DNA of 64,000 bases from contig NC_090378.1 in the NCBI RefSeq assembly GCF_036365525.1, positions 32,946,372 through 33,010,371 on the forward strand, read 5' to 3'. The position numbers and the translations under genes are program-made. The notes beneath the pieces are model-generated. The model saw only the letters and a list, made by a program, of their open reading frames with translations, searched no databases and was not told the DNA's origin. Position 1 is the stretch's first letter; the number at the start of each line of letters is the position of its first letter. Origin of the DNA: Heterodontus francisci (taxonomy: Eukaryota). Positions 6,041-53,058 of this stretch are shown here, piece by piece.

Positions 6041-6920
6041 TTTTGTGAAAGTACTTCCATTTTTAAATATTTTGTGAGGGCTCGTGTTTTAAAATTGTTG
6101 GAATAGATTCCTTTGGAACACTGAAGAGATTACATAGATGCTGGACTTTTTTTAAAAAAGAAAGTCACTGGAAGGACTTTGGGACTTGGTTTAGAAACAT
6201 ACTTACTGGAAGTCACAGTAAACGGCAAACGCCTTGGTGATTAGGGGGAGTTGTTTGCAGAGAAGTGAAATGTCAAGATTTATGGTGAAGAATTGGTTTC
6301 ATTTTGGATATTGTTTTGAGTCAACAGGGGTCAGCCTGCTAAGAGAGAAGACAATAGTTCATCCTTTCTCCACCTCTGAGAAACCCTGAAAATCAAGTGT
6401 GTGGACTGAAACCCCTGATGCCGCATTTCTCCTGGAAAGCCTGCCGGACTAAGCCTCGATGTCGCCTGAAGTGAACTGATCCAAAAGATCCCAGTGACAT
6501 CCGTCTACCCGTATTTGGGATGCCAGAAAAAGGACAACTGACATCATTCCATATCTTATCCTTTTCCTTCAAGAATTAACAAGTATTTGGCCAAAGTATT
6601 TTTTTGTCTTTTATGAAGAGATCTCTGCAGAGAAAACATTTTTTGTTTAACCTGTGTGCATGCGTTGGGCTAATTTAACGGAACTTTCATATTTCATTCG
6701 ATGTGTTAATGCTTTGTATCTTTACTGAATAAGTCTTGTTTTATAATAAATTGATGATTTTGTTGTTAAAGAAACCTGGTTGGTGGATTTTATTCTGAAA
6801 TAAAACAGAGTATATAATCGGCTGTATCAGTAACTGGGTAAACATTTAAATATATGTTGTGACCCATGGAGAAGTGGATCTAGAGAAAGACAGTGCACTC
6901 CTCCCACCTTGGTGGTAACA
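6041..6920 (+). mobile_element. Solo LTR (Gypsy-type)
   Basis: Ends ggtggtaaca; 4-bp TSD gcac (6037-6040 / 6921-6924); 3' end matches reverse complement of 26034-26105. Confidence 0.8.
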
Positions 6921-9256: not shown

Positions 9257-9489
9257 AAAAGCAAAATACTGCGGATGCTGGAAATCTGAAATAAAAACAA
9301 GAAATGCTGGAATCACTCTGCAGGTCTGGCAGCATCTGTGGAAAGAGAAGCAGAGTTAACGTTTCGGGTCAGTGACCCTTCATCGGAACGTTCCGATGAA
9401 GGGTCACTGACCCGAAACGTTAACTCTGCTTCTCTTTCCACAGATGCTGCCAGACCTGCAGAGTGATTCCAGCATTTCTTGTGTTTAAT
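9257..9489. mobile_element. Penelope-like terminal (pLTR) fragment forming a perfect inverted repeat
   Basis: Same terminus as 21570 and 32341; palindrome 9297-9482; 11-bp TSD tctgctttact (9246-9256 / 9490-9500). Confidence 0.9.
9390..9424 (+). ncRNA. Minimal hammerhead-ribozyme-like motif (mirror copy on - strand at 9355-9389)
   Basis: gtt-CCGATGA-a-GGGTC act GACCC-GAAACGTT-aac: core boxes, stem II, palindromic ACGT stem III, stem I gtt/aac. Non-canonical U4>C and extra A. Confidence 0.6.
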
Positions 9490-9621
9490 TCTGCTTTACT
9501 GTTGGGATGCGCGAGGTAATTTTATGAAGATGTAGTTTTGATTATAGAGTACTTTGAATTAACTACTCTTTCCATCTTTGCTTACACTCGAGGATTATTG
9601 AGCAGGACACTTTATCTTGTT

Positions 9622-10200
9622 CAAAGTGATTACTGACAACGCAGCCGACAGCTTGCGTCATCCGACTGCGCCACGTGCGCAGATTGGTCCCTACTGTCTG
9701 CGCATGCGCTGCGTTCCGCAGTGCCAGGACTGGTTGGCGCATGCGCAGATGACGTCATCGCGGTACTGCGGGCAGATGGTGGGGGGGATCCAGGCCGGAG
9801 AGAGCAGGGGTGGGGGGAGAGAGGGTCTGGGGAGCAGGTAGAGAGCAGGTGCGGAGAGATGTGGCCAAAGACCTTGATGGTGGCGGGTGCGCTCTCCTCC
9901 TTCCCCCACCTCCCCTTCCCCGACCACTCGCTCACCGACCACTGGCTCACCTGCCCGCTCGCTCCCCTCCCCAGCCCGCTCGCGCGCTCCCTCCCCTTCC
10001 CTCACGGCCCGCTCGCTCGCTCCCCTCCAGCCATTGTGTGCTGCCATGTGTTTAGGTTGCCATCGTGTGATTATTTGAGCAGCGCCATCTTTAATCCTGG
10101 CAGCTGCCTGACGTCGCAGACTGACCTTTTAGTGGCACAGGCTGCATTTGCGCATGTGCCATTGCAGCGCCACCCAATGGTGGCGTCAGCAAACGCAGCC
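9622..10200 (+). mobile_element. Unclassified non-autonomous DNA element, copy A (9-bp TSD family)
   Basis: Termini caaagtgattaCTGACAACGCAG...gcgtcagcaaacgcagcc; TSD tatcttgtt (9613-9621 / 10201-10209). Confidence 0.85.
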
Positions 10201-13200
10201 TATCTTGTTTGATGTATGTAATGCAGTTCACCAAGACTATATTTTGAGTCTTTGCCCATGGTAAGGTATGCAGTTTTCTATGAGCACAGATTCAAACCAG
10301 TGGAAGGAAAATTGCAGGTAGCACACTTAAAATTTTTACAGTCCTGACTTGCAATATGCAAGGTACCTTGCCATGGCCAAGGAATCGGAAAAATCTACCC
10401 TCTAGTCTGATCCATCTTTTATACTGAAGATTTATCCAAGGTTTATTTGTCTAAGAAATGAGTGCTGGACTTTCATCCAAAGCCCCTCATTTTTATCATT
10501 GAAGGGCTTTAATGTTTTTATGTAAATGGCATGAAAGGTTTTTCTCAGTCAATTTAAGCCACAGCTGTTTGTGATTTGTGTTTTCTCAATGTAGACATGG
10601 CCTGATTTGATTTTAAATTACTGTGTAAATAACATTACTACAGGTTGCTTCACCTATAAAATGTGATGCCATTTCGGCAGCATTGCCTTTTTTATGGCCA
10701 GTTTTGTAGTCTCTTGAAAGGCTGTTTTTAGTTATAATGTTTTTTTGCTTAAGTTGGATTTTTAATATTGAATATAAACCATCTGATATGGATATGATGC
10801 AGTACTGTCAAGATTTTAATCTTTTCTGACCACTTCTGTATCGGTGCACTATTTGTTACTGTAATCCGAAAGATTGCACTTTAATGAATGCATGTACATG
10901 TGGACAGCCAAGAAGACGTACTATTTACTGAAACTGATTCTTCAATTGATTATTTCAATAATTGATTACAGTGTTTAGTACTGCTGTCATTCCCCAAGCA
11001 GAAGGCTAAGATGTCCAATTTGTATATAGTTTTTGGACTTCCCAATTGACCTACAATAAGTTAGATGAGTAAAGACATAGTGGACTGATTTGTCATTTGC
11101 TGCTTCCTGTGCAGCTTTTTCTACATTTTTCAGTTTATTCATGCCCTAAGACCTACAAAGTCAGTTTTAGATTGTTAGGAATTTTGGTACATTCCTTTTC
11201 ATTCTTTGCATTACTTCTCCCTCTTTCATTTACATAATTTAAAAAGGAACAATACTTTGTGGTGTTGGAGATGACATTTTTCTCCTCTTTGCCTAGTTCG
11301 ACACTTCCTTGTATCTCCTTATCTGACACACCTGAGCTGGGTGTTGCATAAGTAGAAATAGCAAAGACATTCTTCTGTATAAGTTTCTGTTACCCATTGG
11401 CTTAGGACCCCGTGTGTTTCACTAGAACAAATAAACTCAGAACAGTCTGTTGGAAATTCAGTCTTTTTCTGTACTAGGAAAACTAAAAATGAAAATTTGA
11501 AACAAGGAATGTAAAGAATGCAAAGTGGGAATATGGTGCTAAAATGATTATCAGATGATTTGAATTAAGAGGGATATACTGCATTTAGTGTCCCCATTAC
11601 ATATTTACCCAAGGTGGTTAAGTGTATAACATTTTGTATTTTATCCATATCATCAGGGTCCATGACCATTTGTCAGGGATCTAAACAGCCCATGGCCCAA
11701 AATGAAGCACATTACACTTGTGTTTATGAAATGTTTATCGATATCTTTTATTGCTGATGCTTCATTTGACGCTAAACTGAAAGTGGTGTCAAAGCCTAGA
11801 GGCAAGGCCCAATGGTGGTTAGTCACATAAAGGTGATTCTATCAGAGACTTCCCTTGTGTGCACTCATCATCACAGCTGTTACGGTGTATGAGATCCTCG
11901 GTTCTTTCCCTGTGAAAAACCTGTGATCAAGGATTTTTAATCCCACAACGGCATTACTCATATACATGTAGTATAGTCAGTGTTTTAAAACAGGAATATA
12001 TCTGGCAGCAGTGATTATGTTTGATAAAACTTAGAGTAAAATTGAGAAAAAGGACCTAACTGGTTGGAGTTACTCTTAATTGATTCCCTTTTTCCTCTCT
12101 CTCTCCCAATCCCAGAGTGGAGACAGGCCCTTTTGAATATGGAATCATTGCAGGTAACAAACACCTCCAAAGAGAGAAACCTGGAACTGATCCTGAAAAT
12201 AATTGAGCACAAAAGAAAAATTCTTAAATACAAATCTATTGCCATGTTTCTAGTACAGCTCCATTTGTTGCAATGTACCAACATCTCAGTGTTAACTGAC
12301 AAATGGCACCACTCTTTCAGACTCGAAATCATTTACCTTTCCAGGATGTCTGGAAAACTTAAGAGCATCAATGTGCATGCATAATTGAGGGAATGTGTTA
12401 TAGTGCCATCTGTGTGTGGCATCATTAATGATTTGGTGCTTTATTTGAGCAAAGTTTGAAGTACTTTTCACAGTAAAACAGAAATTTAAGACCATCTCAA
12501 TTTATATACGGACTAGTGGATTTCCTTGGTGTTGCCTGTGGTGAAAAAGTGCAAAAATAGGGCTGTTTCTGAAAATTTAAACTTATTGTAAACATTTGAC
12601 TCTCTTGTCTCTTCCACATATTTCCTTCCTTTATCCCAGTTTTTAGGTGTGATATTTATTCTTCATTGGTTTTATTGAAGCTTTCTTGAGTTTAATTTTG
12701 CTAGTTCAGTTTATTTGCTTAGCCTTTTCATTTTATTTATATTCTTTGGCTGCAGTTCTGGCCCACAGAAAAAAAAAATGCTTTGAACTCAATTATTGAG
12801 AGCAGACAGAAGCTACCATTGAACGAGAAAGATAGTGCTGTAGGAGGCAGAGCTCAACAACTGGAGCTAATGCTTGGTGGGATCAATATTTGCAATAGCA
12901 GCAATCAGTATAGAACAAAATGCAGCAGTAGCTAGTACCCAGTGCCAGTCTGAAACGAGCAGTGCAAACTGAGATTTTAAAAAGTGTAGGGCGGTCGTGT
13001 TTGAAGCAGATCCAGGGACGGAGATTGAAGCTAAGTGGATGGTGAATAGTAACAAGCTGCAGTGGGCAAGCAAACAAAATATGGTAACAAAAACCTCAGT
13101 AAAAGAAAGGAGCAAAATTCGAGCCCCAACCCGAGACTATACCAGACACCAGTGAAAAGGAAAAAAAATGACCTGTAAAGTGATCAAATAGCGAACAGGA

Positions 13201-13513
13201 GATGACAGAAGTGATAAAATATGACAAAAAGAGGTACAATGAGAATGTTAAGGAAATAAAAATACACGAAACCCAGAGGATGCGAGAATAGTTAAAGCCG
13301 AAAAGCTAATCGGAAACATTGCCAGACTGATTTGAAGGAACTTACAATTTCAAGGATACGAGAAAATCATTTGCAAAGGGACATTTTTGACTTTAAAAAT
13401 ATCCTTGTTTCACTGGTTAAATCCTGTTTTGTCTTCAAGATTCACCAAATTCTCCTCCTTGACCAAAGCAGTTCGCGTTGTTGCTTTTTGTCACAAAAGC
13501 CCAACTTCTAGCA

Positions 13514-13853
13514 ACAGTGGCGCAGTGGTTAGCACCGCAGCCTCACAGCTCCAGCGACCTGGGTTCAGTTCTGGGTCCTGCCTGTGCAGAGTTTGCAAGT
13601 TCTCCCTGTGACCACGTGGGTTTCCACCGGGTGCTCCGGTTTTCTCCCACAGCCAAAGACTCGCAGGTTGATAGGTAAATTGGCCATTGTAAATTGCCCC
13701 TAGTGTAGGTAGGTGGTAGGAGGATTGAGGGGATGTGGTAGGGAATATGGGATTAATGTAGGATTAGTATAAATGGGTGGTTGTTGGTTGGCACAGACTC
13801 GGTGGGCCAAAGGGCCTGTTTCGGTGCTGTATCTCTAAATAAAATAAATAAAA
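13514..13853 (+). mobile_element. HE1-like V-SINE
   Basis: Full head, V-domain and tail with (taaa)n end. Confidence 0.9.
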
Positions 13854-14296
13854 CTCTTTACATCCAGCAAACTAATCGAGTATTCAGGCATGGCTTTGTG
13901 GACAGCTAGTCTTTTTCTAGCCAGAAACCTCTAACAGTAAACCTTGAAAAGCTTGATAACGCCATTGACAAAGGCTTAAAAATGCTATTCTTTGGAAGAT
14001 GGACAAATTTCACATTTGTCAGGCCAGAAATTATAGGGTGCTCAGGGACTTGTCTTTAATGATTAACATGCTTCCACCATGCGCTCAAAATGTTTTGTCC
14101 AGAGATTGAATGTACTTAAAAATTGTAGAAGTTAACAAGATCACTGATTAAGCCGTAAATGCTTTCTGCAGGGTCATGTCAAAATTTTTGAAACATCTTG
14201 GCCCCTCACTTTAACAGATGAACAAAAGAGGAAGCTTCTCAGATCCAAAAACAACTTGCATTTATATAGCACCTTTAACAAAATAAAATGTCCCTT

Positions 14297-17200
14297 TCGT
14301 GGGGAGGTGGTGGCCTAGTGGTATTGTCACTGGACTAGTAACCCAGAGACCCAGGGTATTGCTCTGGGGACATGGGTTTGAATCCCACCACGTCAGCAGG
14401 TGGAATTTGAATTCAATTAATAAGTCTGGAATTAAAAGCTAATCTAATGATGGCCATGAAACCATTGTCGATTCTCGTAAAAACCCATCTGGTTCACTAA
14501 TCTGGAAATCTGCTGTCCTTAACTGGTCTAGCCTACGTGTGACTCCAGATCCACAGCAATGTGGTTCACTCTTAACTGCCCTCTGAAATGGCCAAGCAAG
14601 CCACTCATTTGTATCTGACCGCTACAAAGTCGATAAGGAATGAAACCAGACGGGCCACCCGGCATTGACCTAGGCATTGGAAACGACAACGGCAAACCCA
14701 GTCCTGTCGACCCTGCAAAGTCTTCCTTACGAACATCTGGGGGCTTGTGCCAAAGTTGGGAGAGCTGTCCCACAGATTAGTCAAGCGTAGTCATGCTCAT
14801 GGAATCATACCTTACAGACAATGTCCTAGACACCGCCATCACCATCCCTGGTTATGGCCTGTCCCACTGACAGGACAGATCCAGCAGAGGTGGCGACACA
14901 GTTGCATACAGTCGGGAGGGAGTTGCCCGGGGAGTCCTCAACATTGACTCCAGACCCCATGAAGTCTCATGGCATCAGGTCAAACATGGGCAAGGAAACT
15001 TCCTGCTGATTACCACCTACTGCCACCACCCCCCACTAACCCCCCCCCCCACCTCAGCTGATGGATCAGTACTCCTCCATGTTGAACACCACTTGGAGGA
15101 AGCACTGAGGATGGCAAGGGCGCAGAATATACTCTGGGTGGGGGAGTTTAATATTCATCACCAAGAGTGGCTCTGTAGCACCACTGCTGGCCGAATTGGC
15201 AGAGTCCGAAAGGACACAGCTGCTCGGCTGGGTCTACGGTAGGTGGTGAGGGAACCTACAAAAGGGAAAAACATACTTGACCTCGTCCTCACCGATCTAC
15301 ATGTCACAGATGCATCTGTCCATGAAAATATTGGTGGTAGTGACCACCGCACAGTCCTTGTGGAGACAAAATCCTGTCTTCACATTGAGGATACCCTTCA
15401 TCGTCTTGGGTGGCACATCCACTGTGCTAAATGGGATAGAACTCGGAACAGATCTAGTAATGCAAAACTGGGCATCCATGAGACGCTGTGGGCCATCAGC
15501 AGCAGAATTAAACTCAACCACAATCTGTAATGTCATGGCCCGGCATATCCCCCCCTCTACCATTACCATCAAGCCGGGGGATCAACCAGGGTTCAATGAA
15601 GAGTGCAGGAGGACATGCCAAGAGCAGCACCAGGCATACCTCAAAATGAGGTGTCAACCTGGTGAAGCTACAACACAGGACTACTTGCGTGCCAAACAGC
15701 GTAATCAAACAAGGGATCAGATCTAAGCTCTGCTGTCCTGCCTCATCCTGTTGTAAATGGTGGTGGACAAGTAAACAACTGACTGGAGGAGGTGGCTCCA
15801 CAAATAGCCCCATCCTCAATGATGGGGAAGTCCAGCACATCAGTGCAAAAGATAAGGCTGAGGCATTTGCAACAACCTTCAGCCAGAAGTGCCGAATGGA
15901 TGATCCATCTCTGCTTCCTCCTGAAGTTGCCAGCTTCATAGATGCCAGACTTCAGCCAATTCAATTCACCCCATGTGATGTCGAGAAATGACAGAAGGCA
16001 CTGGACACTGCAAAGCCTACAGGCTCTGACAACATTCTGGCAATAGTACTGAAGACCTGTGCTCGCGAACTAGCAGCTTCCCTAAACAAGCTGTTCCAGT
16101 ACAGCTACAACACTGGCTTCTACCCGGCAATGTGGAAAATTGCCCAGGTATGTCCTGTACACAAAAAGCAGGACAAATCCAACCTGGCCAATTACCGCCC
16201 CATCAGTCTACTCTCAATCAGTAAAGTGATGGAAGGTGTCGTCGACAGTACTATCAAGTGGCACTTGCTTTGCAATAACCTGTTCAGTGACGTTCAGTTT
16301 GGGTTTGGGTTCCACCAGGGCCACTCAGCTCATGACCTTATTACAGCCTTGGTTCAAACATGGGCAAAAGAGCTGAACTCGCGGTGAGGTGAGAGTGACT
16401 GCCCTTGGGATCAAGGCAGCATTTCACCGAGTATTGCATCAAGAAGCCGTAACAAAAGTGGAGTCGATGGGAATCAGGGAAAATGCTCCACTGGTTGGAG
16501 TGGTACCTAGCGCAAAGGAAGGTGGTTGTGGTTGTTGGAGGTCAATCATCTGAGCTCCAACTCATCACTGCAGGAGTTCCTCAGGGTCGTGTCCTAGGCT
16601 CAACCATCTTCAGCTGCTTCATCAATGACCTTCCATCCATCTTAAGGTCAGAAGTGGGGATGTTCGCTGATTGCACATTGTTCAGCGCCATTCGCGACTC
16701 CTCAGATACTGAAGCATTCCGTGTAGAAATGCAGCAAGACCTGGACAATATCCAGGCTTGGGCTGATAAGTGGCAGGTAACACTAGCGCCACACAAGTGC
16801 CAGGGAATGACCATCTCAAACAAGAGAAAATCTAACTATCTCCCCTTGATATTCAATGGCATTACAATCACTGAATCCCCCAAGATCGACTGAACTGGAG
16901 TAGCCATATAAATACCGTGGCTACAAGAGCACAGTGGCGCAGTGGTTAGCACCGCAGCCTCACAGCTCCAGGGACCCGGGTTCGATTCCAGGTACTGCCT
17001 GTGTGGAGTTTGCAAGTTCTCCCTGTGTCTGCGTGGGTTTTCTCCGGGTGCTCCGGTTTCCTCCCACAAGCCAAAAGACTTGCAGGTTGATAGGTAAATT
17101 GGCCATTATAAATTGTCACTAGTGTAGGTAGGTGCTAGGGAAATATAGGGACAGGTGGGGATGTTTGGTAGGAATATGGGATTAGTGTAGGATTAGTATA

Positions 17201-17873
17201 AATGGTGGTTGATGTTCGGCACAGACTCGGTGGGCCGAAGGGCCTGTTTCAGTGCTGTATCTCTAATCTAATCTAAGCACGCCAGAGGCTAGGAATCCTG
17301 TGGCGAGGAACTCACCTCCTGACTCCCCAAAGCTTGTCCACCATCTACAAGGCACAGGTCAGGAGTGTGATGGAATACTCTCCACTTGCCTGGATGGGTG
17401 CAGTTCCAACAACACTCAAAAAAAACTCAATACCATCCAGGACAAAGCAGCTCTCGTGATTGGCACCCCATCCACAAACATTCACTCCCTCGACTACCGA
17501 CGCACGGTGGTAGCGGTGTGTACCATCTACAAGATGCACTGCAGCAACGTATCAAGGCTAGTCAGGCAGCAGCTTCCAAACCTGCGACCTCTATCAACTA
17601 AAAGGACAAGGGCAGCAAATGCATGGAACACCACCACAAGTTCCCCTCCAAGTCACACACCATCCTGACTTGGAACTATATTGCCGTTCCTTCACGGTCG
17701 CTGGGTCAAAATCCTGGAACTGCCTTCCTAATAGCACTGTGGGTGTACCTACCCCACATGGACTGCAGCGGTTCAAGAAGGCAGCTCACCACCTTCTCAT
17801 GGGCAACTAGGGTTTGGGCAATAAATGCTGGCCTTGCCCGTGACGCCCACATCCCATGAAATGCATTAAAAAA
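14297..17873 (+). mobile_element. Near full-length decayed CR1/Jockey-group LINE (APE + RT) with tRNA-like 5' head
   Basis: A box tggcctagtgg 14311-14321, B box ggtttgaatcc 14375-14385. Endonuclease NIWGLVPKLGEL...EPTKGKNILDLVLTD..GGSDHRTV, then RT, tail and polyA. Confidence 0.85.
16929..17275 (+). mobile_element. HE1-like V-SINE inserted in the LINE
   Basis: Interrupts host ctacaagagca|...cagaggctaggaatcc; (ctaat)n tail. Confidence 0.9.
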
Positions 17874-18582
17874 CAAAGTGGATTTCTTTTCCTTTTCTCA
17901 CTATTTGGTTATGCAATTCTTAAACTATTCAGCTGGAGATATGATTTTGACAACTTTAACAAATAAATTTGTCACAGGGAATTCATCAAAGGTTTCTGTT
18001 GCAATAATCTAGGTATATCATAATTCACAACTGTAATGATAAACAGTAAGTTTATACCATGTATCTGTCATCAAATGGAATTGGATGCTGGTTTAAGAAA
18101 GCTGAAGTCAAAGGTGGTGAATGGTTGGGTTCCACACCTTTTAAATCCCAACAAACGAATGTACAACGTTAAAGAATTTGTGTTTTTACAATGGATTTGA
18201 CTGTAATTCTTTATAAACCTAATTTTAGCAACTCATGGCTAAAGTTAATGAGAATCAGGAATGTGGCATTGTTTAACTTGATACATTTGAATTGTGCCTT
18301 TGACAGTTGGTCTCTAAAACAAATTGTTTTCCTGGTAGAGATCTGTATAGTCCCAGGATTGAACCTTGGACTTGCTTGGTCCATATGCCCCATCCGGTCC
18401 CAGGACTTCTTATTTTAAATTCTAAATTTACACATCCTTTATTACGTTAGTATTAGCTTTAAATAGGTCTGCAATGTTTTCTGATAGTTCTGATTCTGCA
18501 TGAACCTGCTGTGTTAAGGTTTGCATGTGTTTTGAGATAAATCTAGGCAGTTGGACTAATCTGCAACACTGATATTTTGCAG

Positions 18583-18728
18583 CTGTGCCAAGTTTTATCC
18601 GAATCCCTGTGGATCAGATTGGAATTTCTGGAGGAGTGGCTTCATTTGTATGCCAAGCAGAATCAGAACCTAAACCTCGTATCACCTGGATGAAGAAAGG
18701 GAAGAAAGTCAGCTCTCAGCGCTTTGAG
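18583..18728 (+). CDS. PTPRF: Internal coding exon of LAR-family receptor tyrosine phosphatase (Ig1 N-terminal half)
   Basis: ttttgcag|CT...GAG|gtaaaa; 146 nt, phase 1 to 0. Translates [48 protein letters not shown], matching [39 protein letters not shown]. Confidence 0.95.
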
Positions 18729-19569
18729 GTAAAACTCTGTCCCTTAAACACTTAAAAAGCTTGGGAGAGCCATGCATCAAACCTTGTTACAATGATGAAA
18801 CTGTGACTGTAATTATACCTTTTTTGGTTAGCTAAGTGATGCATTCAGAAATTCATTACCATGTTTAACAGTCTCCAATTCAAGTTACTAATGAATGTCA
18901 ATGCACCTGAAGTGTTTGCTTTGCCCATTTCACTTATTCTAGTCCAGAAGCGCAGGTTGGCAGATCTCAAGGCTCAGGGACTCTTGAATGTGTGCAGAGA
19001 TACCGCTGGAGTTTACCCAGTTAAAACTGTGCAGCTTCAGAGCTGTTTCATGCTGCTTGTTCAACTGGGACTATCCTACCTGTTGGGACGTTGGCTTGTA
19101 GCATTATTTGGAGCCAAGTGTGAAAAGTCCCAGCCCTATGTCAGGTCTATCCTCCCTGTTCAACCAGGGATTCTTGTGGGGTAAAGGCACAAGCATGCCT
19201 CTAACTGTAGAATTGTTACTTGTGCTACAAGGGGAATGTGAGTTAGGAGAGGTAGGTAATGCTGCTGCTCAGTAAAATGACCAGGATTGTGCACCCTTGT
19301 TCTGGACCCCCCCCCCCCACTAGTGGAAATAGTTTCTCAGTATCTACCCAAACAAATCTGTTTTATCATTGTAAATACTTTGATTATTTCTCTGCTGTAA
19401 ACTTAAGGCATACAAACCAAATTTATGAAAACTGTCTTCATAATTTAGCTCTTTAAGCCTGGGTAAATTTTTGATGAATCTGTGCCGTTCCCCCATCAAG
19501 GCCAATATAATCTTCCTGAGGGTGCAGTTCCCAAAACTGAACACAGTACTCTCGATGCTCTTGACAGTA

Positions 19570-20483
19570 CCTTCCTTCAATCATAAGGTCAGAAGTGGGG
19601 ATGTTCACTGATGATTGCACAATGTTCAGCACCATTCGTGACTCCTCAGATACTGAAGCAGTCCGTGTAGAAATGCAGCAAGACCTGGACAATATCCAGG
19701 CTTGGGCTGATAAGTGGCAAGTAACATTCGTGCCAGGCAATGACCATCTCCAACAAGAGAGAATCAAACCATCTCCCCTTGACATTCAATGGCATTACCA
19801 TCACTGAATCCCACACTAACATCCTAGGGGCTACCATTGACCAGAAACTGAACTGGAGTAGCCATATAAATACCGTGGCTACAAGAGCAGGTCAGAGGCT
19901 AGGAATCCTGCGGCGAGTAACTCACCACCTGACTCCCCAAAGCCTGTCCACCATCTACAAGGCACAAGTCAGGAGTGTGATGGAATACTCTCCACTTGCC
20001 TGGAAGGGTGCAGCTCCAACAACACTCAAGAAGCTCAACACCATCCAAGACAAAGCAGTCCGCTTGATTGGCACCCCATCTGCAAACATTCACTCCCTCC
20101 ACCACAGTGGCAGCAGTGTGTACCATCTACAAGATGCACTGCAGCAACGCACCAAGGCTCCTTTGACAACACCTTCCAAACCCGCGACCTCTACCAACTA
20201 GAAGGACAAGGGCAGAAAATGCATGGGAACACCATCACCTGCAAGTTCCCCTCCAAGTCACACACCCATCCTGACTTGGAACTATATCGCCGTTCCTTCA
20301 CTGTTACTGGGTCAAACTCCTGGAACTCCCTTCCTAACAGCACTGTGGGTGTACCTATCCCAAATGGACTGCAGCAGTTCAGGAAGGCAGCTCACCACCA
20401 CCTTCTCGAGGGCAGTTAGTGATGGGCAATAAATGCTGGCCTGGCCAGCGACGCCCACATCCCATGAATGAATAAAAAAAAAG
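19570..20483 (+). mobile_element. 3' fragment of the same LINE family, inserted among CR1 remnants
   Basis: MFTDDCTMFSTIRDSSD...YKAQVRSVMEYSPLAW; family tail plus polyA. Confidence 0.9.
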
Positions 20484-20489
20484 TTGAAG

Positions 20490-21160
20490 CACCACTTGCT
20501 GCTTTTAATATTCCATACCTCTTGAGGTAAAAGCCAGTGTTCTGTTAGCTTTTTTGTTACTTTTTGTACCCATGCACTAGCTTTTAGCTATTTGTGTACA
20601 TGGATACCTAAATCCCATTGATTCTCCACAGCCCATAGTTTTTCTTCATTGAGAAAATATTCTGATTTGTCTTTTCTCAGATCCAAAGTGGATGACTTCG
20701 TACTTCCCCACTTTGAACTCCATCTGCTGTAATTTCGCCCACTCGCAGTCTGCCGCTTTGTAACCTGCTGCTCCCATCCACGCAAATTACTGTGCCACCT
20801 AACTTGGTGCCATTTATAAACTTGGATATTCCTTCAGCCAAATCCGCAATATATATGGTTAAAAAGCCGGGGCCTCAGTACAGATCCCAGGGAATATGAG
20901 TTGTCATATCCCACCAATCCGAGCATGTTTCCACTATCCCTACTCTCTGTCTCCTATCCGCCCAACCAATTACTGACCTATGCTCCAAGGTTCCCTCTGA
21001 TTCTGTACACTTTAATTTTTGCTAATAGTCTCTTGTGCAAAATCTTATCAAATGCCTGCTCCAAGTCCATATAGACAACAGTCATAAACACTTTCTTATC
21101 TGCCATATTAATGGTCTCCTCAAAAATTCAACTTTGTTAGTCAGATTACCAAATCCATGA
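20490..21160 (-). mobile_element. Degenerate CR1 RT fragment (continues at ~19310-19565)
   Basis: DLGIHVHK; aatcttatcaaatgcc..aagtccatatagacaaca is the minus strand of VVYMD..AFDK. Confidence 0.65.
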
Positions 21161-22813
21161 ATTCCAAGTATAGTAATCTGTTGTAAATTATTTGCCTTTC
21201 AATTAGTTCAACTGCTACTTTAGCACTTCAACTCCTTCTGTTCAATTTTTGAAGTCATCACAGCCAAGCTTGATCCTGTTCTCAGCCAGTATCCACACAC
21301 CAGCACTTTGCAGCAGATATCACTGGCTAGCAGGCAAGAGTGGCTGAAACTGTGGCTGAGAATAGCAAAGTCAGCAGGGACTTTCCGTTTCATATTATAT
21401 TACATTAGGCAGTGCCTTTACATACTGGTCCATTAAAGGGCCATTGATCCAGAAATGTGCTAAACCAGTATTTATTGATGATTTACATGTAGCCTGATGA
21501 GCGATATTTCAAACGAGTGAAAGGGGCATTTGCTGGACATATGTTTGTACAAGACTAGCCCTTGTTGATATAAAGACAGAAAATGCTGAAAATACTCAGC
21601 CAGTCTGGCAACATCTGTGGAAGGAGAAACAGAGTTAACACTTCAGGTTAATGACCGTTCATCAGGAATGGGAAAGTTAGAAATGTAATAGGTTCTTAGC
21701 AAAGGGAGGGTGGGAAGAAGAACAAAGGGTCTGTGATGGGGTAGGATTGAATGACAGAACAGTTTGTCGTGCAGGGTCAAAGGGCATGGTAATGGGGCAG
21801 GAAAAGAAACAAATTATGTGCCTAGAGCAGGTATGCTGCTGTCTGATAGCAAAAATAAGAGAACAACTGAAACATGCAAAGACAGGGAAACAGAATGGGG
21901 ACAGAAATTACGGTCTGAAATTGTTAAACTCAATGTTGAGTCCAAAAGGCTGTTAAGTGCCTAGTTGAAAGATAGGGTGCTGTTCATCGAGCTTACATTG
22001 CACTTCATTGGGACAATGCAGTAGGACGAGAACAGAGAGGTCAGCTTGAGAGCATGGTGGAGAATTAAAATGACAGGCGACCGGTAGCTTGGGGTCGTGC
22101 TTGCAGACTGAACGAAGATGTTTCACAAAGCAGTCACCCAGTCTGCGTTTGGTCTCCCTAATGTAAAACTGACCGCATTGTAAGCAGCGAATACAGTATA
22201 CTAAATTGAAAGAAGTACATGTAAATTGCTGTTTAACTTGGAAGACTTGTTTGAGGTCTTGGACAGTGAGGGAGGGGAGGTAAGGGGGTAGATGTTGCAT
22301 TTCCTGTGCTTGTATGGAAAGGGATCAGGGGGAATGGGGTGATTGAGGAGTGGACCAGGATGTCATGGAGGGAATGGTCCCTTCGGAATGCTGAAAGGGG
22401 TGGGTAAGGGAAGATGTGTTTGGCAGTGGCGGAAATGGCAGAAGATGATGGGTTGAATATGGAGGCTAGTGAGGTGGAAGGTGAGGACACTGGGCACCCT
22501 GTTATAGTTCTGATAGGGAGGGGGAAGGGGTGAGAGCAGAAGTGAGGGAAATGGAGCGGACATGGTCGAGGGCGCTGTCAACCATGGTGGTGGGGGAGGT
22601 GTGTCCTCGATTGCGGAAAAAGAAAGACGTATCAGCAGCACTGATATGAAATGTTGCATCATCAGAGCAGATGCGACGGAGACTGAGAAACTGGGAGAAT
22701 GGAATGGAGTTCTACAGGAAGCAGGGTGCGAGGAAGTTTAGTTGAGCTAGCTGGGGCTTGTAATGACTATTCGTTGATAGCCTATCTCCAAAAATAGTGA
22801 CACAAGTTGAGGA

Positions 22814-25800: not shown

Positions 25801-27207
25801 TAGTTTAAACCCTCCCCAACTACACTAGTGAACCTCCCAGCAAGGACAATGGTCCCAGCCCTGTTGAGGTGCAACCTGTCCCTTTTGAATCGGTGGCTTC
25901 TGCCCCAGAACGGGTCCCAATGCCCCAAGCATCTGAAGCCCTCCCTCCTGCACCATGCTTCAAGCCACAGATTGATTCTCCCTATCTTCCAATTCTCCTC
26001 ATGCTGCTGCGCAGCACTGGAAGTAATCCAGAGTGTTACGACCAAGGCAGGAGGAGGGCACTGTCTTTTCTAGTTCCACTTCTCCACAGGTCACAACATA
26101 TATGTTTTTAAATGTTTACCCAATTACCAATGCAGTCAGTCATATACTCGTAATCTCAGAATAAAATACATCAACACACATTTCTTTAATAAATAACAAA
26201 ATTACCAGTTTATTATAAAACAAGACTTAACCAGTAATGAAGCAAAGCATTAACACACAGATTGAAATATGAAAGTTCCCATTTTGAAATTAACCACACA
26301 CAAACTCTCAGACACACTGAAAAAAATACAGAAATTCTTTCTGCAGAGGTCTGTTACCAAAAAAAGGACATAAAACTGAATACTTTGGCCAATACTTGCT
26401 AATTCTTAGAAAAAAGAGAATGTCAATTGTCCCTTTTTGGTCAGACGTCCCAAATACGTGTAGATGACTGTCACTGGGATATTTCTAGAGCAGTTCTTTT
26501 CAGGCGACGTTGAGGATCAGTTTGGCTGGTTTTCCAGCAAAAATGCGGCATCAGGAGTTTCTGGAAGACTTTTCAGGAGAAATGCAGCATCAGTTTCTCT
26601 GTTTCTTACACTTGATTCTCAGGGAGTTCTCAAAGAGATGGAAGAGGGTGAGCTGATGGGGCTGCTCTCTTGGCTGGTTTTCTCCAACTTTCTTCATAAC
26701 AGTTCACGCCCCAAAACATTGTCCAAAGCGAAACCAAAAACAATATCTCGAGAGTTAAGCCTCCGGACCCCTATAAATCTTGACCTGTCACTTCTCTGTC
26801 AACATCTTCTCCAGGTCACCAAGGTTTCTGTTTATTGCTTAAAGCACATGACTTCCAGCAAGGCTGTTTTTAAACAACATCTCAGTGTCCTTTCAATGAA
26901 CAGTTAACGACAAAGCAAAGCCTAGCTTCTATGAAATCTTCAGCCTTCCCGTGAATCCATCTTCACAATTTAAATATAAGTCCTCAAAAACATATACTGA
27001 ACAAAAAATATAGAAGCTCTTTCATAACGAGATTACTACCTTCGCGTTCCTACTCTTTAACTTCCTCCCTAGCTCCTGAAAATCTGAATGTAGGACCTCA
27101 ATACCTGCCCTTGCTATGTCATTGGTACCAATGTGTGCCACAACCTCTGGCTCATTTCCTTCCCTCTGCACAATATCCAGTACCCTTTCGGTGATGTCCT
27201 TTACCAG
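22814..27207 (-). mobile_element. Decayed near full-length CR1 LINE (ORF1 SGNH esterase + ORF2) inside Penelope
   Basis: SGVPQGSVLGPLLF, DVVYTDFKKAFNKVPHKRL; ORF1 motifs VVAHIGTNDI and FKRDRLHLNRAG. Confidence 0.85.
26034..27028 (-). mobile_element. Solo LTR inserted in CR1 ORF1
   Basis: tgttacgacc...tcataac; interrupts CR1 gtaatccagag|attactacc with gag duplicated; related to 6041-6920. Confidence 0.8.
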
Positions 27208-30739: not shown

Positions 30740-31500
30740 CAAGCAATTACACCATGTCACCGACTCCATCCTTCTCCCTGGCAACTGACTGAGACTGAAC
30801 CAAACCATCCACAATCTTTGTGTCGCATTTGATCCAGAGATGAGCTTGTGGCCATATATTCGCTCCATCAGCAAGACCACCTATTTCCACTTCCATAACG
30901 CCGCCTGAATCTGCTGCTGCCTCAGCTAATCAGCTGCTGAAACCCTCATACATGTCCTTGTTACCTCTAGACTTGACTATTCCAATGCTCTCCTGGCCTG
31001 CCTCCCACCTTGCACCCTACATGAACTTGAAGCCATTCAAAATTTTGTTGCTGGTATCCTTACTCCCACCAAGTCTTGTCATCTATCACTCCTATGATTG
31101 CTGACCTACATTGACACCCGGTCAGGCTACAACTGAATTTTAACATTCTCATCCTTGTTTACAAATCTCTCTCGCCCTTCCCTATCTCTAGCCCTACTAC
31201 CTTCAAGATCTCTGTGCTCCTCCAGTTCTGACTTCCTGAGCATTCCTAATTTTAATTGCTCCATCATTGGCAGCCATACCTTCAGCTGCCTAGGCCCTAA
31301 GCTATGGAATTCACTCTCTAAATCTCTCTGCTTCTCTCTTTAAGATGCTTCTTCGAACCTGCCTCTATGACCAAGCTTTTAGCCATCTGTCCTAATATCT
31401 CCTTATGTGGCTTGGTGCCACATTTTGTTTGATAACGCTCTTTGAAGCATTTTGGGATATTTTACTATGTTCAAGGCGCTATGTAAGTGCAAGTTGTCTT
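30740..31500 (+). mobile_element. L2 LINE 3' fragment
   Basis: ttgttacctctagacttgactattccaatgctctcctgg (LVTSRLDYSNALL); tail aaggcgctatgtaagtgcaagttgt. Confidence 0.75.
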
Positions 31501-32638
31501 TGCTTGTGGATTAAAATGATATTTGTTTTGAGTTTTTGCAAATTTACTTCAATTAAAAGCAATACCTATCAATAGTTAGCAAGAGCAAAAATAAACAACA
31601 GATTAGTCAGCATTTATAAAGAAAAAAGTACACTGAACATTCCAGGTGTAAAGCTTTATGGAGTTCAATGGGGTATAGAGTAAATGCAATGTGTTTAAAG
31701 CATTTGCAGTTCTTTTTTCTTTTTCTTTCATACAGTAACATCCTTTTTGTTACCTTCATTCTGGGACTGGTTTGAAAAGCAGACATTTTACTCCTTTTAT
31801 GCAACATGTTGGTGATTCTCCTTAGTCGACATTTGGTCAACTCTTTACTGCCATTTGACTAAAAGCATTCCATTTAACTCAAGGATTTAGAATTTAAGTT
31901 CAAAGCATTGCTGAAGTGAATAACAACTGTACTGTATTTGCATTAAAAAGTATAATTTTTTCATGAACTTGCATTAGTTTTGTCGTTTAAGAGTTTCACC
32001 TGCAGTTACTTGCTTTTCTGAAGAGACTGAATAAAATGAGGAAGTCAAGATGGATACAATGAAGAAGGCCATTTGCTCACTGTATTCAAGAAGAAATACA
32101 GTCCCCAATTGTAGCATCTAACTGTTAAATATTAAGTCTGGTATCCTACCCAAAAGTCTATTCAGCCATTGATCATTTTTTGTGTTAGTATTTGAACTTG
32201 TGCCTCCTTCTTCAGAGTTTCTCCTGTATTTCTGCATAACTCAGCCTTCAGATACTCGGGATCATTCTTATAATTTTTTTTCTCTCTACTTGAAAGTCTC
32301 TTTTGTGTCCATGTAGCTAGGACTGAAACAGCACTCTGATAACAAAAGCAAAATACCATGGATGCTGGAAATCTGAAACTAAAACAGAAAATGCTGGAAA
32401 TACTCAGGTCAGGCAGCATCTGCGAAGAGAGAAACAGTTAATGTTTCCATGATGTATCGCCAGAACTGGAACAAGTTAGTAATGTTTCAGTTTTTAAGCA
32501 AGCGTAGAGGCAGGGAAAAGTAGCAGGGGTGAGTGGCAGGGTAGGAATGAACAAACAACAACTACTTATATTTATATAGTGCCTTCAACGTAATAAAACG
32601 TCCCAAGGTGCTTCACAGCAACATTATAAAACAAAATG

Positions 32639-33806
32639 CAAAGTGATTCCTGACAACGCAGTGGCCCACTGACGTCATCAGAGTGCGCCAACGTCATCGC
32701 GTATCTGTGCAGCTACAGCTTGTCAGGACTAAGTGGCGCATGCACGGGATGATGTCATCACACAGCACCGACGTCATCGCGTAACTGCGCCTGGTTCATC
32801 TTCACACATGCGCTATAAAGTGTCATCGGGTATCCACCCCCCACTCGGTTGGAGGAAGCGGCTGAATAGGAGACTTTGAGGCTGGAGCTCTCCCTCCTCA
32901 GCAACTCGCTCCAGGCCTCGACACTTCCTGCCCTCAGCCACTCGCACCAGACCTCACTGCTCCCCCCCCACCACCACCACCACCACCCCCCCCAACTCCC
33001 CTAGCCCCCTAGCCAATTGTTCCTCGCTTCGCGTCACCCCGCTGTCCGGCCGCTCGCTTCCCCTCACCTGCAGCCGCTAGCTCTAGGCCGCGCCACTTCC
33101 CTTCTCTCAGCCACCCGCTCCTACGTCGCCCCGTCACCTTGTGTGACCCGCCAGCCCTTGCAACCTGCCTTGCTTCTTCAGGTGGCGCGTGGAGACTGAT
33201 CAAGCGTGGGAGCGAGTGGCCGAGAGGAGGGAAGCGGTGCGGCCTCGAGCTAGCGGCTGGAGGTGGTGGGGGGGTGAGGGAAGCAAGCAGCCGGAGAGCG
33301 GGGTGGCGCGAGCGGGGAACGAGTTGGGGTGGGGTGGGGGTGGGGAGAGCAGCCAGTAGGGTGGGAGCTAGTAGTCGGGTGAAATCTGTGCTGCTCAGTC
33401 ATATAAACGAATCACAATAACAACTTGGCAGCGCATTTTATACTCTGCCCGATTTTCATTTCCATCGATCGGGGTGCCAATTCACTAACTTCCAATGGAA
33501 ATTCAATCATAAAATTCCTTTTGTATTTAATAGGATTACTGGAATATTAAATGGATCTGATGATTACAGTTAGTATCCTATAACTACATAGTAGCATATT
33601 ACTGGGCTTCCATCCAACTCAATGTAAGGTTAGTTTGCTAAAACGATCTCGCCATAAGCATTTCCTGCGATAAATTGAGCAGTGCCATCTTTAATCCTGG
33701 CAGCTGCCTGAACGTTGCAGACATTGACGTTCCAGTTGAATAGCCTCCATTTGCGCATGTGCAAGTACTGCGCCACCTAGTGATTGTGTTGTCAGCAAAC
33801 ACAGCC
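32639..33806 (+). mobile_element. Unclassified non-autonomous DNA element, copy B
   Basis: caaagtgattcCTGACAACGCAG...tgtgttgtcagcaaacacagcc; degenerate 9-bp TSD aacaaaatg / aataaaata; cleanly splits the L2 tail. Confidence 0.85.
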
Positions 33807-35781
33807 AATAAAATATGACATCAAGCCACGTAAGGAGATATTAGGTCTCGTGGCCAAAGAGGTAGCTATTAAAGAGCGTCTTAAAGGAGGAAAGCGAGGC
33901 AAAGAGGTGTAGAGAGGGAATTCCAGATCTTGGGACCTAGGCAACTGAAGGCTTGGCTACCAGTGGTGGAGCAATTAAAATCGGGGATGCTCAAGAGGCC
34001 AGAATTAGACGAGCACAGATATCTCGCATGGTTGTGCGGCTGAGGAGATTACAAAGATAGGGAGGGGCGAGGCCTTGGAGGGATTCGAAAACAAGGATGA
34101 GAATTTTAAAATCAAAACATCGCTTGACCAGGAGCCATTGTAGGTCAGCAAACACAACGGGTGATTGGTGAATGGGACTTGGTGTGAGTTAAGACATGGG
34201 CAGATTTTTGTATGACCACAATTTTACAGAGGGTAGAATGTGGAACACCTGCCAGGAGTGCCTTAGAATAGTCAAGTCTAGCGGTAACAAAGGCATGAAT
34301 GAGGTTGTCAGATGAGCTGAGATGGAGTGAAGTCAGCTGATACGGAGGTGGAAATGGATAGTCTTAGTGATGGCACCAGTTTGAGGTCGGAAGCACATCT
34401 CAGGGTTAAATGTGACACAAAAGTTGCGAACAGACTGGCTTAATTTCAGAGAGGGTTGGAGTCTAACCAGGGAACGGAGTTTGGAACGGGGACTGAAAAT
34501 AATGGCTTCAGTCTTGCCAATATTTAATTGAAGGAAATTTCTGTTCATCCAGTACTGGATGTCTGATAAGCAGTCTGATAATTCAGTAACAGTGGAGGAG
34601 TTCAAAGAGGTGGTGGTAAGGTAGAGCTGGGTGTCATCAGCGTATATGTGAAAACACTGTGCTTTCAGATGTTGTCGCTGAGGGGCAGCATGTAGATGAG
34701 AAATAAGAGGGGGTCAAGGATAGATCCTTATGGGACACCATAGCTAACGGTGCAGGAGCCAGAAAAGAAGCCAATGCAAGTGTTATTCTGGCTACGATTA
34801 GATAGATAAGAATGGAGCCAGGTGAGAGCAATACCACCCAGCTGGACGACAGTGGCGATGTATTGGAGGAGGATGGTGTGGTCAGCCGTGTCAAAGGCTG
34901 AAGACAGATTGAGAAGGACAAGGAGTTTATCTTTGTTGCAATCACAGAGGATGCCATTTGTGACTTTGATAGCTGTTTTGGTACTGTGGCAGGGTCAGAA
35001 ACCTGATTGGAGGGATTCAAGCATGGAGTTTCAGGAAAGATGGGAACGAATTTGGGAGGCGACAACACATTCAAGGACTTTCATGAGAAAAGGGAGGTTG
35101 GAGATGGGACGGAAGTTTGCAAGGATGGTGGAGTCGAGGGTTTTTTTTGAGGAGGGGAGATGATGGCAGATTTAAAGGAGAGAGGGACAACACCTGAAGA
35201 GAGAGAACCATCAACAATATCTGCTAACATGGGGACCAACAGGGGAATTTGGGCTGGTGGTAGTTTAGTGGGAATAGGGTCAAGGGAGCAGGAGGTGGGT
35301 CTCATGAACACGATGAGCTCAAAGAGGGCATGAGAGGAGATAGGAGAGAAAATAGAGCAAGATGAGAGTTTAGGACAACAGCAGGGGTGAGCATTAGAGG
35401 AAGTTTGGCCTGGTAGGCTAGTGGAAGGGAGGGATGTGACAGAGGCAGCTGATCGGATGGTCTCAATCTTGGCGATATAGAAGTCCACGAGCTCCTCGCA
35501 CTTATTGTTTGAAGGGATGGGGAGAGGGGTTTAAGAAGATGGTTTGTAGTAGAGAAAAGAAGTTGCAGGGGTGGGGGGAGAGGTTATCTTTGTATTCCAG
35601 GATGATCCTGGAATAGTGAGCATTTGTAGCAGGCGAGAGCAGGACCCGCTTGTGTTTTATTGGTCCAGCCAGTTGTTCATCATATCCTTTTAAGTCTGCA
35701 TCCCTTGGACTTAAAAGAGGGGAAATGAGGGCCGTACCAGGGAAAACAACAGAATGAGAGAGAGCAGTGGTTTTATTAGGA

Positions 35782-46400: not shown

Positions 46401-47298
46401 GTAAAATGCTGCGCATCAGAAATAAAACAATTATGACTCCGATGTTTTGTAGAATTACACAGGATTTTTTTAAAATACCAACACGCCCGTTGCATGTTTG
46501 TGCAGGCACAGCAATTGAAATCAATAATATTTCATGTTACCATACAATATACCATAATGTTCGTGACACCAAAGTAATTATCAGTCAGACCTGTTCTGCT
46601 TGAGTGGCATAAAGTCCATTTGACTGATTAGCTTTTGCAGTCAAGGTACTGTTTATTCCAGCAACACCATGCACTGCTTCCTCTTAATAATACACAACGC
46701 AGCTGTAATGAGTGAACTTTAAGCGAATTGTGTAAATATGCACCGAGAGATTACTATGATAAGATATTTTCACACGCGATTAAAACATGATTTGTAGCTT
46801 GTGAAGATTAAATCTGTACTGTTTTCAGAAAGCAATAGGTTTGTGGGTAAAAACCTTTAACCTTTAATTGACTGCTGCAACATTAAAATTCATCAGATTG
46901 ACAAGTTTCAGAAAATTGAATATTTCTGCATTCAGGCTTGCAGCCATTTGGAATGTTGTAATTATGCATGCTATTTTGCAACATTTTATCAAAAAAGCCA
47001 ACGAGGCCTTCAGTGATATCTGATGAAAAGTAAAAGTACTTGGGGTTTGTCAGGGATGTAGCCACCCACTGAAAAATCAACATGAGAAGTCTTTGGAATG
47101 CAGAAAGTGGTTACTATATTGAAGTGGTGAATCCTAATAATATACTGATTGTCAGCAAGATCCACACAGTTCTGTGTGCATACCAATTCAGAAACATTGT
47201 TATCTTCAAAATTATCGCTGAAGCCGCAGCTGCTGTTGGTAGTAGCAGCACTGTGAAGTTAATACAGCATCACGGGCTTGACACTTCACGGCATGTAT

Positions 47299-48247
47299 TG
47301 TTATGATCAGGTGATAAAGGTGTCTAGGGGTCCCTTTCAGCCTTCACCTGGTCTTACTGTAACAGAATTTAATTTTGAACACACGGTGTTTTGAGCTCCC
47401 TCTTTGGTGAATCCTTGTTCACTGCTTTCCAATTTTAAGGCAAAGAAATGAGCACTAACAGGCTTTCTTAGGTTTAAAGAAGAAGAGTGAAATTTATTTA
47501 AACTTAAACTCTTAATACGGTTAGCGCCTACGGATACACACCACGCCCCACACTAGCATGCATACGTGATATGCACATGCAAATAGAGACAGAAAAGAGC
47601 AGAAGAAAAATAAAGTGGAGAGGTTTGAGGCAATATCTGAAGAGTTTCTTGTTACTGTGCTTCAAGCTCACTGTAGTCCTTGCTTGTAGGTAGATCTTAC
47701 TTTTCGTTGGGCCCAGTATTCTTCTTAAACCTTGTTCACTGTAGGAGACTGTTTCTCTTGGGGGTTATATGTCTTCAGTGAGTTTCAGTTCCGTGAGAAA
47801 GAGATGGAAGCAGACAGGAGAGGTTGCGGCGAGCCAGCCACGAGAGGTCTTTCAGTACAAGAGAAAACAGCTTTCCGCCAGTTCAAAACTCTGTGGCAAG
47901 TTCAAATTCAAAAAAGCTCAGGTGGCCCAGCAAGTCAGTCATGTGACTAGCTGGTGTGATCACGTCCGTTTGTGTATTCGGCCATCTTAGCAGTTAACTT
48001 GGAATGCGAGCTCCTCCACCTTCAACATCTGGTAATCAAAAGTCCATTGTGGATTAAATTGGAGCAGGGAGTAGCCCCTTTGTCTTTTCCCAGTACTGTC
48101 TGTTAATATGCAAAAATGTCTCTCCAGCCAAGGATCCATTGCGGGTTTTTTAACCAGTTCTTTCTTCACTCAGTAACAGTTTAAAATTAATGTTCACGTG
48201 GCAAAATTAATATTCCTCATTCTTTGCAGGTGGGGGCCTGCATGAGC
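47299..48247 (-). mobile_element. Solo LTR
   Basis: tgttatgatc...catgagc; TSD gtat (47295-47298 / 48248-48251); both ends reverse-complement LTR 60295-61181. Confidence 0.85.
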
Positions 48248-49288
48248 GTATGCTGAAAATAATTTGAGGTGGAGCCTGTGCCGACTATATCAGTTCACGC
48301 CTTTGAGCAATCACTTTCAATACTCAGTTGCTGTTTTTATCAGCTTCTCTATGTAAATCTGAATGTGAAGGCTCTAGTTAAGGTTGTGTATAAAGCAACC
48401 CATGGCAAGCATTGCAAGCAATCAGATTTCTGTAAATCTAACCTATTTTGCATCATCATGTACAGCCACTGTAATGACAAGTAGGAACGATCCTTTGCAC
48501 ACATGCTTAATTTTGTTCTGATTGTACTTTGGCAAGAAATGTTCTCAGTTTAACAGCATTGTATGGTATATGGATAGTAATGGAATGTCTGATTTGAATT
48601 GAGACTGCACATATGGTGATGGTTGCTTTTGATTTTGTTGAGGCTAAATTCCAAAGCTTTAATGTGAAATATTTGGTTTAAGCTCATGTTTGTGTTATGA
48701 ACACTGGAATTTGTAACATGATTATGTTTTAAAAACGGCAATTTTTGAAAAGTTTAAGGTGGAGTTAGAGAAGTCAGGTAACCTCTCATCCACTCTGTTT
48801 CAAGGAAAAACAGGAATTTTGGTTATCAGGATACAAAGATCCAAAGATTTTTGAAAGAAACCGAGACTGCAGGGGTATAGTACCTGAAGAAAGTTGGGTC
48901 TCACCCTCCCAGACCTTCGGGTCGTAACCAAGGAGTCAGTGATTCTGAGGATACAGATGTGCATGGCAGCTGCTAACACCTGGAAACAATGAAAGGCTTG
49001 GGTGGTGCTGCTGAAACCAGACTTGTGGACTTTGCATATTGGAAAAGGACAGTGGGGCTATTGACTTTTGATTCCAGATAAATTTAAGTCTGAGTTTGCT
49101 GACAATGCAGCCACTAAGAGGCACTGTACTAGCACATGCGCAAATGCAGCCTGTTCCACTAAAACGTCACAGGCTGTGACGTTCAGGCAGCTGCCAGGAC
49201 CAAAGATGGCACTAAAGATGCAACAAATCCATGGCAGTACACAATGGAAATATTGGTCACTCGGAGAACGTAGAAAGTCTCATCATTG

Positions 49289-49587
49289 GGCGGCGCAGTG
49301 GTTAGCACCGCAGCCTCACAGCTCCAGGGACCCGGGTTCAATTCTGGGTACTGCCTGTGCGGAGTTTGCAAGTTCTCCCTGTGACCGCGTGGGTTTTCGC
49401 CGGGTGCTCCGGTTTCCTCCCACCGCCAAAGACTTGTAGGTGATAGGTAAATTGGCCATTGTAAATTGCCCCTAGTATAGGTATGGGATTACTGTAGGGT
49501 TAGTATAAATGGGTGGTTCTTGGTCGGCACAGACTCGGTGGGCCGAAGGGCCATGTTTCAGTGCTGTATCTCTAAATAAATAAAAAA
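49289..49587 (+). mobile_element. HE1-like V-SINE
   Basis: Head, V-domain, tail, (taaa)n. Confidence 0.9.
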
Positions 49588-52284: not shown

Positions 52285-52727
52285 TTCCAATGAAATCGCG
52301 AGAGAATGCTCCTCTTTCCAATAAAATGCCAGAAAATACAACTACGACCGCAACAAAACCTCTCCTCCTTCCACTTTCAGAAACTTTCGCCAAAGGTTGA
52401 CGCATGCGTGAATACCCGATGGCGTTGCAGTATGCGTAAAGCGCATGCGCGGAGGTCGACCAGGTGCATTATACAATGATGTACGCGTTACGCGATGACA
52501 TTTCCCGCGCCTGCGCCAGCCAGTCCTAGCAAGGTGGAACCCCGCGCACGCTCAGAGAGAAGGAGCGCATGTGCACAGCTTGGTGCAGTCTGATGACATC
52601 AGCGGGCCGCTGCGTTGTCAGGAATCACTTTGTAAATTTAACAACTTTCAGATTTTCTGAAGGCAGACAGGCTGTAAGAAAGAAAGACAACCAGTGGTGG
52701 CAGCCTCAAGGGAGAGAGTGAGGGAAC

Positions 52728-53058
52728 TAAAGTCCTGCTGCCCGACCCGGACCCGACGACATGTGTCTGGTTTGGATCAGGTCGGGTTGCATTTCCAGGT
52801 GTGGCATTCGGGCTCGGGTCGGGTCGGGCCGGATCGGACACACTCTATCACAGGTAAGTGGCTCCAATGTTAATTTAATTTTTGGACTGGAAAGGTGGTT
52901 TTGTTACAGTTAGTTTAAGCTTGTGCAGATCAGTAACAAAGTGAAAAATGGAAGGTAAGTTAACTGATGGTCGGGTTGGGCGCAGGAAAAAATGGAAGGA
53001 CTCGGGCTGGGTCGGGTTCGGGTTGGGTTTTTTTTTTGCAGACTCGAGCAGGCCTTTA
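52728..53058. mobile_element. hAT-type MITE
   Basis: TIR taaagtcctgct / agcaggccttta; 8-bp TSD gagggaac / gtgggaac; repeated ccgac/gtcgg subterminal motifs. Confidence 0.8.

Follow-up and report, generated by a model that had tools for sequence, protein, structure and literature searches.

Three related insertions in a 64-kb window (the whole stretch of DNA analysed, 64,000 nucleotides) are copies of a real, abundant, non-autonomous DNA transposon. We consider it probable that all three are non-autonomous members of one abundant family with a 9-bp target duplication (TSD), likely moved in trans by a DDE cut-and-paste transposase that is encoded elsewhere and is possibly of the AcademH type. 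The copies, referred to here as A, B and C, and their TSDs are located as follows:

9622–10200, plus strand: copy A, 579 bp, non-coding (from the sequence and three-way end alignments)
32639–33806, plus strand: copy B, 1168 bp, inside a host repeat (from the sequence, TSD comparison and a paralogue)
49088–52632, minus strand: copy C, 3545 bp, with a core of its own of about 1.9 kb (from the sequence and TSD comparison)
9613–9621, plus strand: left TSD of A, TATCTTGTT, a 9/9 match to the right TSD
10201–10209, plus strand: right TSD of A, TATCTTGTT (flank comparison)
32630–32638, plus strand: left TSD of B, 7/9, its length set by the paralogue test
33807–33815, plus strand: right TSD of B, 7/9 (flank comparison)
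49079–49087, minus strand: TSD of C at the element's right end, where empty-site joints break exactly at 49087
52633–52641, minus strand: TSD of C at the element's left end, 9/9

In three-way alignments, identity among A, B and C ends at the element's first and last base, which bears out the coordinates, strands and termini proposed in a preliminary description of this DNA. Roughly 140–170 bp are conserved at each end: pairs of copies have in common a left-end block of about 140 bp (76% identity between A and C; 91% over the first 53 bp of B and C) and a right-end block of 124–174 bp (75–81% in pairwise comparisons); no additional copy of either end was found within the 64-kb window. The element ends carry neither a poly(A) tail nor a TG..CA pair in any of the three copies. 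AT-rich 9-bp TSDs, two of them perfect and one matching at 7/9, had likewise been proposed, and we found the same: besides the perfect pair of A, TTAAATTTA stands at both flanks of C (9/9), and B has AACAAAATG/AATAAAATA (7/9). When lengths from 2 to 13 were tried, the longest perfect flank match was 9 in both A and C. Random flank pairs drawn from this window (400,000 draws) match at 9/9 with a frequency of 1e-5 and at 7/9 or better with a frequency of 1.8e-3. The TSDs have an A/T content of 7–9 out of 9, and 16% of the 9-mers in the window have at least 7.

Two sets of empty sites provided an estimate of TSD length and of the element boundaries. For B, the comparison was made with one sequence inside the window:

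31215–31507, minus strand: element-free paralogue of the host repeat of B (empty site), ungapped across the junction and best aligned with 9 bp removed

The element together with n further bases was removed, and the remaining sequence was compared with the paralogue (31507–31215). Ungapped identity at the junction is highest for n = 9, with 44/55, and is at most 38/55 for the other 14 values (n from 0 to 14). For C, reads or contigs of four of the eight host runs were aligned to 48900–52820. A joint from 49087 to 52649, skipping C, was present in 11 contigs of run X1 and 10 contigs of X2 (same sample as X1), as well as in X5 (50 reads with 38 starts) and X6 (300 reads with 2 starts). One side of this joint is the exact element end, at 49087; the other, 52649, lies 7 bases past 52642, the position predicted from the element plus one TSD, and a local indel in the host repeat of C likely accounts for the offset. 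The 7 bases in question (52642–52648), which adjoin the left TSD of C and are missing from the commonest empty-site paralogues, are similar to the start of the element itself; they may represent an indel in the host repeat or a filler left by transposition. Copy C, like copy B, lies in a repeat, and the empty sites of both are paralogous and do not prove insertion polymorphism. Both tests agree with the earlier proposal that this DNA transposon family has asymmetric ends and genuine TSDs of 9 bp.

The length of the TSD bears on an alternative that we regard as very unlikely, namely that the family is Zisupton or another KDZ derivative. Zisupton is known from fishes, and Kyakuja is described as having no TIRs and starting with CA, like the left end here (PMC12730594, section on these elements). 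The same section, however, puts the TSD at 8 bp in both Zisupton and Dileera and at 7 bp in Kyakuja, lengths that do not match 9 bp, and Zisupton, which the preliminary description had named as a candidate, is not supported by this comparison. An 8-bp TSD is poor in our copies: the flanks match at 2/8, 4/8 and 5/8, and the empty-site test of B gives 35/55 at n = 8. The right end reads CC, not TG.

The ends themselves have a specific structure, with a short core set back from the tips and, on the right, a terminal palindrome:

9633–9644, plus strand: left subterminal core of A, CTGACAACGCAG, at positions 12–23 of the element (core search)
33782–33806, plus strand: right-end terminal palindrome of B, enclosing the inverted core, with a 9-bp stem and a 7-nt loop (7/9 pairs)
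49088–49112, minus strand: right-end terminal palindrome of C (6/9 pairs)

The 12-bp core CTGACAACGCAG matches the window four times at one mismatch or fewer, compared to 0.22 matches expected, and none of 100 shuffles reached four. All four matches begin at position 12 of an element end; the two remaining ends, that on the right of A among them, have the core in a degraded form. When left and right ends are compared, positions 12–23 match at 7/12 in A (with a 3-bp gap), 10/12 in B and 11/12 in C, in keeping with the inverted repeat, starting at position 12 and shorter in A, that had been noticed before. The outer 11 bp had been described as unlike. This holds for positions 1–4 (0/4 in A, B and C), and does not hold for positions 5–11, where 4/7, 5/7 and 4/7 match in A, B and C, respectively; the repeat 'recessed 11 bp' may also be taken for an imperfect one set back by 4 bp. 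A long TIR is absent, the best end-to-end local alignments in the three copies being 16–18 bp. The right-end palindrome is 25 nt long and extends to the last base; the 3-bp gap breaks the version in A, and CpG decay may account for two changes in the version of B and one in that of C. No terminal palindrome of this type is present at the left end. The folding energy of the right ends is not significant (z-scores of -0.76 for B and +1.53 for C).

Helitron2/HINE elements combine a subterminal repeat with a terminal hairpin, and the ends described above recall that design. A retroposed or rolling-circle element, either SINE-like or Helentron-like with a subterminal repeat and hairpin, would nonetheless be most improbable here, given that all three copies have a target-derived TSD of a fixed 9 bp and fixed 5′-ends without a tail, and that C has no Rfam match. 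Another alternative, which we hold to be unlikely, is a DDE lineage not yet described, in which the right end, tipped by a hairpin, and the plain left end have different roles. One-end-first cleavage occurs in copy-out/paste-in elements, and by analogy ends with two roles could mean cleavage of that kind. The palindrome, present on one side only, would allow the two ends to have unequal roles; together with the unlike outer four bases of all three copies and protein searches that returned no match, it speaks for such a lineage. However, missing protein matches are expected of degraded non-autonomous copies, the folding z-scores are not significant, and asymmetric or absent TIRs are already known in VANDAL and Kyakuja.

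Movement by a DDE cut-and-paste transposase is most likely. The features seen here, constant tips, conserved blocks at both ends, freely varying interiors and a fixed, target-derived 9-bp TSD in AT-rich DNA, are the hallmarks of non-autonomous elements moved in this way; the TSDs are target-derived, because each differs in sequence. Since the core is 11 bp from the tip at either end, although the tips are unlike, we suggest that the transposase would bind the subterminal core and cut at a set distance, a fixed 11 bp outside the core at both ends. Cutting at a fixed distance would mean that the tips need not mirror each other. The element ends would then be joined to the target strands at points separated by 9 nt, and the 9-bp TSD would arise when the gaps are repaired, in agreement with the origin of TSDs by a staggered cut and gap repair (PMC10045372, passage on TSDs). 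The variable interiors may have arisen from a longer autonomous element by deletion or capture.

Several features are distinguished in the interiors of B and C:

33019–33320, strand not assigned: GC-rich inverted interior repeat in B (69%)
49292–49587, plus strand: SINE nested in C, with several more copies in the window; we take it to be shark HE1-like
50962–52283, plus strand: LINE fragment nested in C, presumably CR1, with approximate bounds and a 478-aa RT-like ORF at 50888–52324
50400–50800, minus strand: high-depth interior segment of C (X1 depth of about 13,000–22,000)

Most of the length of C is due to the nested SINE and LINE, both of which were missing from the preliminary description, and the core of about 1.9 kb is what remains. 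The types of these two nested elements suggest that the host is probably a shark. GC-rich interior sequence is shared, at 81% identity, between B (33205–33317) and C (49639–49750). The left interior of C (50900–50960 and 52290–52340) contains several repeats of about 30 bp that the nested LINE splits. After them come a GTAAG near 50845, similar to a splice donor, and, near 50770, a site similar to an acceptor; by eye, this layout resembles a promoter, 5′ UTR and first intron.

Read depth changes steeply at the ends of C. In run X1 it is about 1,500–1,900 in the flank (49052–49055), averages 30,497 in the bin spanning the right end (49031–49161) and reaches 16,421 at 52598, near the left end, with exact single-copy contigs at about 6. 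A similar step is seen in X5, from about 80 in the flank to a bin mean of about 640. These values point to thousands of related ends in the host, as an order of magnitude only, since read depth is no copy number. The high-depth segment of C (50400–50800) is carried by few contigs, the listed differences being found in 13–27, and the aligned pieces match C at about 88%. These figures suggest a subfamily that is young and homogeneous; the segment could alternatively be a captured piece of another repeat.

The copies themselves had been described as lacking a transposase, and Pfam, word searches and phmmer of the interior frames all failed to give a credible match. The 12 interior frames of B and C produced nothing above the Pfam cut-off (two matches below it had E-values of 0.12 and 0.16); the KDZ transposase domain (PF18758), the MULE domain and helicases were without a match in the frames scanned, as were three longer minus-strand frames of C in Pfam as a whole. 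Protein word searches with three minus-strand frames of C, run against longer proteins, gave no match with an E-value of 10 or less, whereas the plus-strand frames of C and the interior of B were covered by the Pfam scan only. Full phmmer on one C frame had P0001 (E 2.7e-5) as its sole match, and this bacterial Ig-repeat protein was rejected as a chance sum of ten weak repeats. One C frame we take, by eye, to resemble DUF6729 proteins; Pfam gave no match for it. The 14 read-derived differences in the C interior favour no frame (at best 6/14 are synonymous), and C has no match in Rfam. Pattern searches found the left end in neither metagenome_contigs nor genome_contigs, and did not find the right subterminal block in metagenome_contigs; the host is not expected in these collections.

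A single stretch of C bears some resemblance to a known transposase:

50480–50566, minus strand: broken frame like the first catalytic motif of the Academ transposase profile (weak, post hoc)

Read from 50566, this frame gives D-D-M-D-I-R-x-H-H and, further on, H-x-x-N. The Academ RNase H profile starts with D-N-x-D-i-k-P-l-h, and its later h-v-t-n follows at a distance shorter by one residue than that of H-x-x-N in the C frame (PMC5751038, profile in the supplement). A scan of all six frames of the 64 kb found a single match to the pattern D[ND]xD[ILMV][KR], within the high-depth interior of C. The pattern was fitted post hoc; it was matched in 6 of 5000 shuffles, and in 0 of 5000 when a downstream HxxN was included. 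A strict D-N-x-D pattern has no match in the C frame and one match elsewhere in the window. Compared to the profile, the C frame has D in place of a near-invariant N and M in place of P, and its score of about 14 bits, worked out by hand for 10 positions, would not count as significant in a profile search. Because the pattern is post hoc and the near-invariant N is missing, the motif raises AcademH only modestly.

The window contains a number of other repeats. About 125 bp to the left of copy A lies a near-perfect palindrome of 216 bp (9282–9497, 96%), presumably a Penelope-like inverted end, with partial copies near 21570–21670 and 32340–32450. Retrotransposon RT/RNase H and integrase remnants at 328–1597 and 55907–56997 are, we assume, of a Gypsy-like LTR retrotransposon. 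Inverted copies of one unclassified repeat (75%) occupy 6408–6920 and 26034–26561, and three minus-strand frames of each gave no Pfam match; another inverted pair of repeats of about 950 bp (77% identity) is found at 47298–48245 and 60297–61182. A frameshifted PIF/Harbinger-type transposase remnant is located at 57686–58695 (Pfam DDE_Tnp_4, E 2.7e-26). It was considered as a partner of the family and rejected, PHIS elements giving TSDs of 0–4 bp.

The end design is unusual but not unprecedented. No description of the family was found in the literature searched; TE libraries, where so abundant a family could well be listed as unclassified, lie outside that search. A literature search with four 12-base end motifs gave no transposon paper by title, and nothing on point linking sharks or subterminal repeats to these features was among the listings. 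We tentatively entertain, as an unlikely possibility, a vertebrate lineage that belongs to none of the named superfamilies (or else is the first MULE to be verified in a vertebrate), whose enzyme would read an internal 12-bp site, cut by distance and treat the hairpin-tipped right end differently from the plain left one. Such a lineage would have multiplied to thousands of copies, a young subfamily among them, so that an intact autonomous gene may still be in the genome. That cutting goes by distance is a prediction that follows from the fixed 11-bp offset and the unlike tips and can be tested. Because the tips do not pair, programs that search for TIRs would likely overlook the family or misplace its boundaries. 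Should the partner prove to be AcademH, the copies would reveal how the ends of this helicase-carrying lineage, so far little studied, are built in a vertebrate; a partner that is neither AcademH nor MULE would define a new lineage. A MULE partner would answer whether MULEs are truly absent from vertebrates, posed as an open question in the relevant part of PMC6446971.

As to the superfamily, we are leaning towards AcademH and file the family under neither AcademH nor MULE. The chance that the enzyme is of the AcademH type seems to us a little short of even. Kojima (2020) is said to have described this lineage of the Academ superfamily as occurring in animals. Its TSD is given as 9 or 10 bp (PMC10045372, passage on TSDs), a range that includes our 9 bp, and the earlier list of superfamily candidates stood only in part: besides naming Zisupton with its 8-bp TSD, it had left AcademH out although that range fits. 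The likeness to Academ extends to the one broken C frame that weakly resembles the start of the RNase H profile (PMC5751038, supplement); the difference is that a helicase and a transposase were not found in the interiors here.

A non-autonomous MULE/IS256-type element with short degenerate TIRs, like a non-TIR VANDAL, is possible and in our view rather unlikely. MULE TSDs are given as 8–11 bp, which includes 9 bp, and MULE TIRs as 14–500 bp, with those of VANDAL absent or short and degenerate (PMC6446971, survey of TSDs and TIRs). The repeat here is readable as an imperfect TIR from position 5, as a MULE would allow, and the variable interiors are in line with it. On the other hand, the same part of that source reports no MULE transposase confirmed in vertebrates, and the interiors gave no MULE match in Pfam. 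Compared to MULE/MuDR, including the non-TIR VANDAL and Rehavkus, our family differs in having no long TIR, a feature typical of but not required for that group (16–18 bp at best here), and no MULE domain found; it is alike in TSD range, in short or degenerate TIRs and in variable interiors. Zisupton, Kyakuja and Dileera differ from it by TSDs of 8 or 7 bp and by the right end, and resemble it as DNA transposons of fishes (Zisupton) with weak or no TIRs (Kyakuja), as characterized in the section cited above (PMC12730594).
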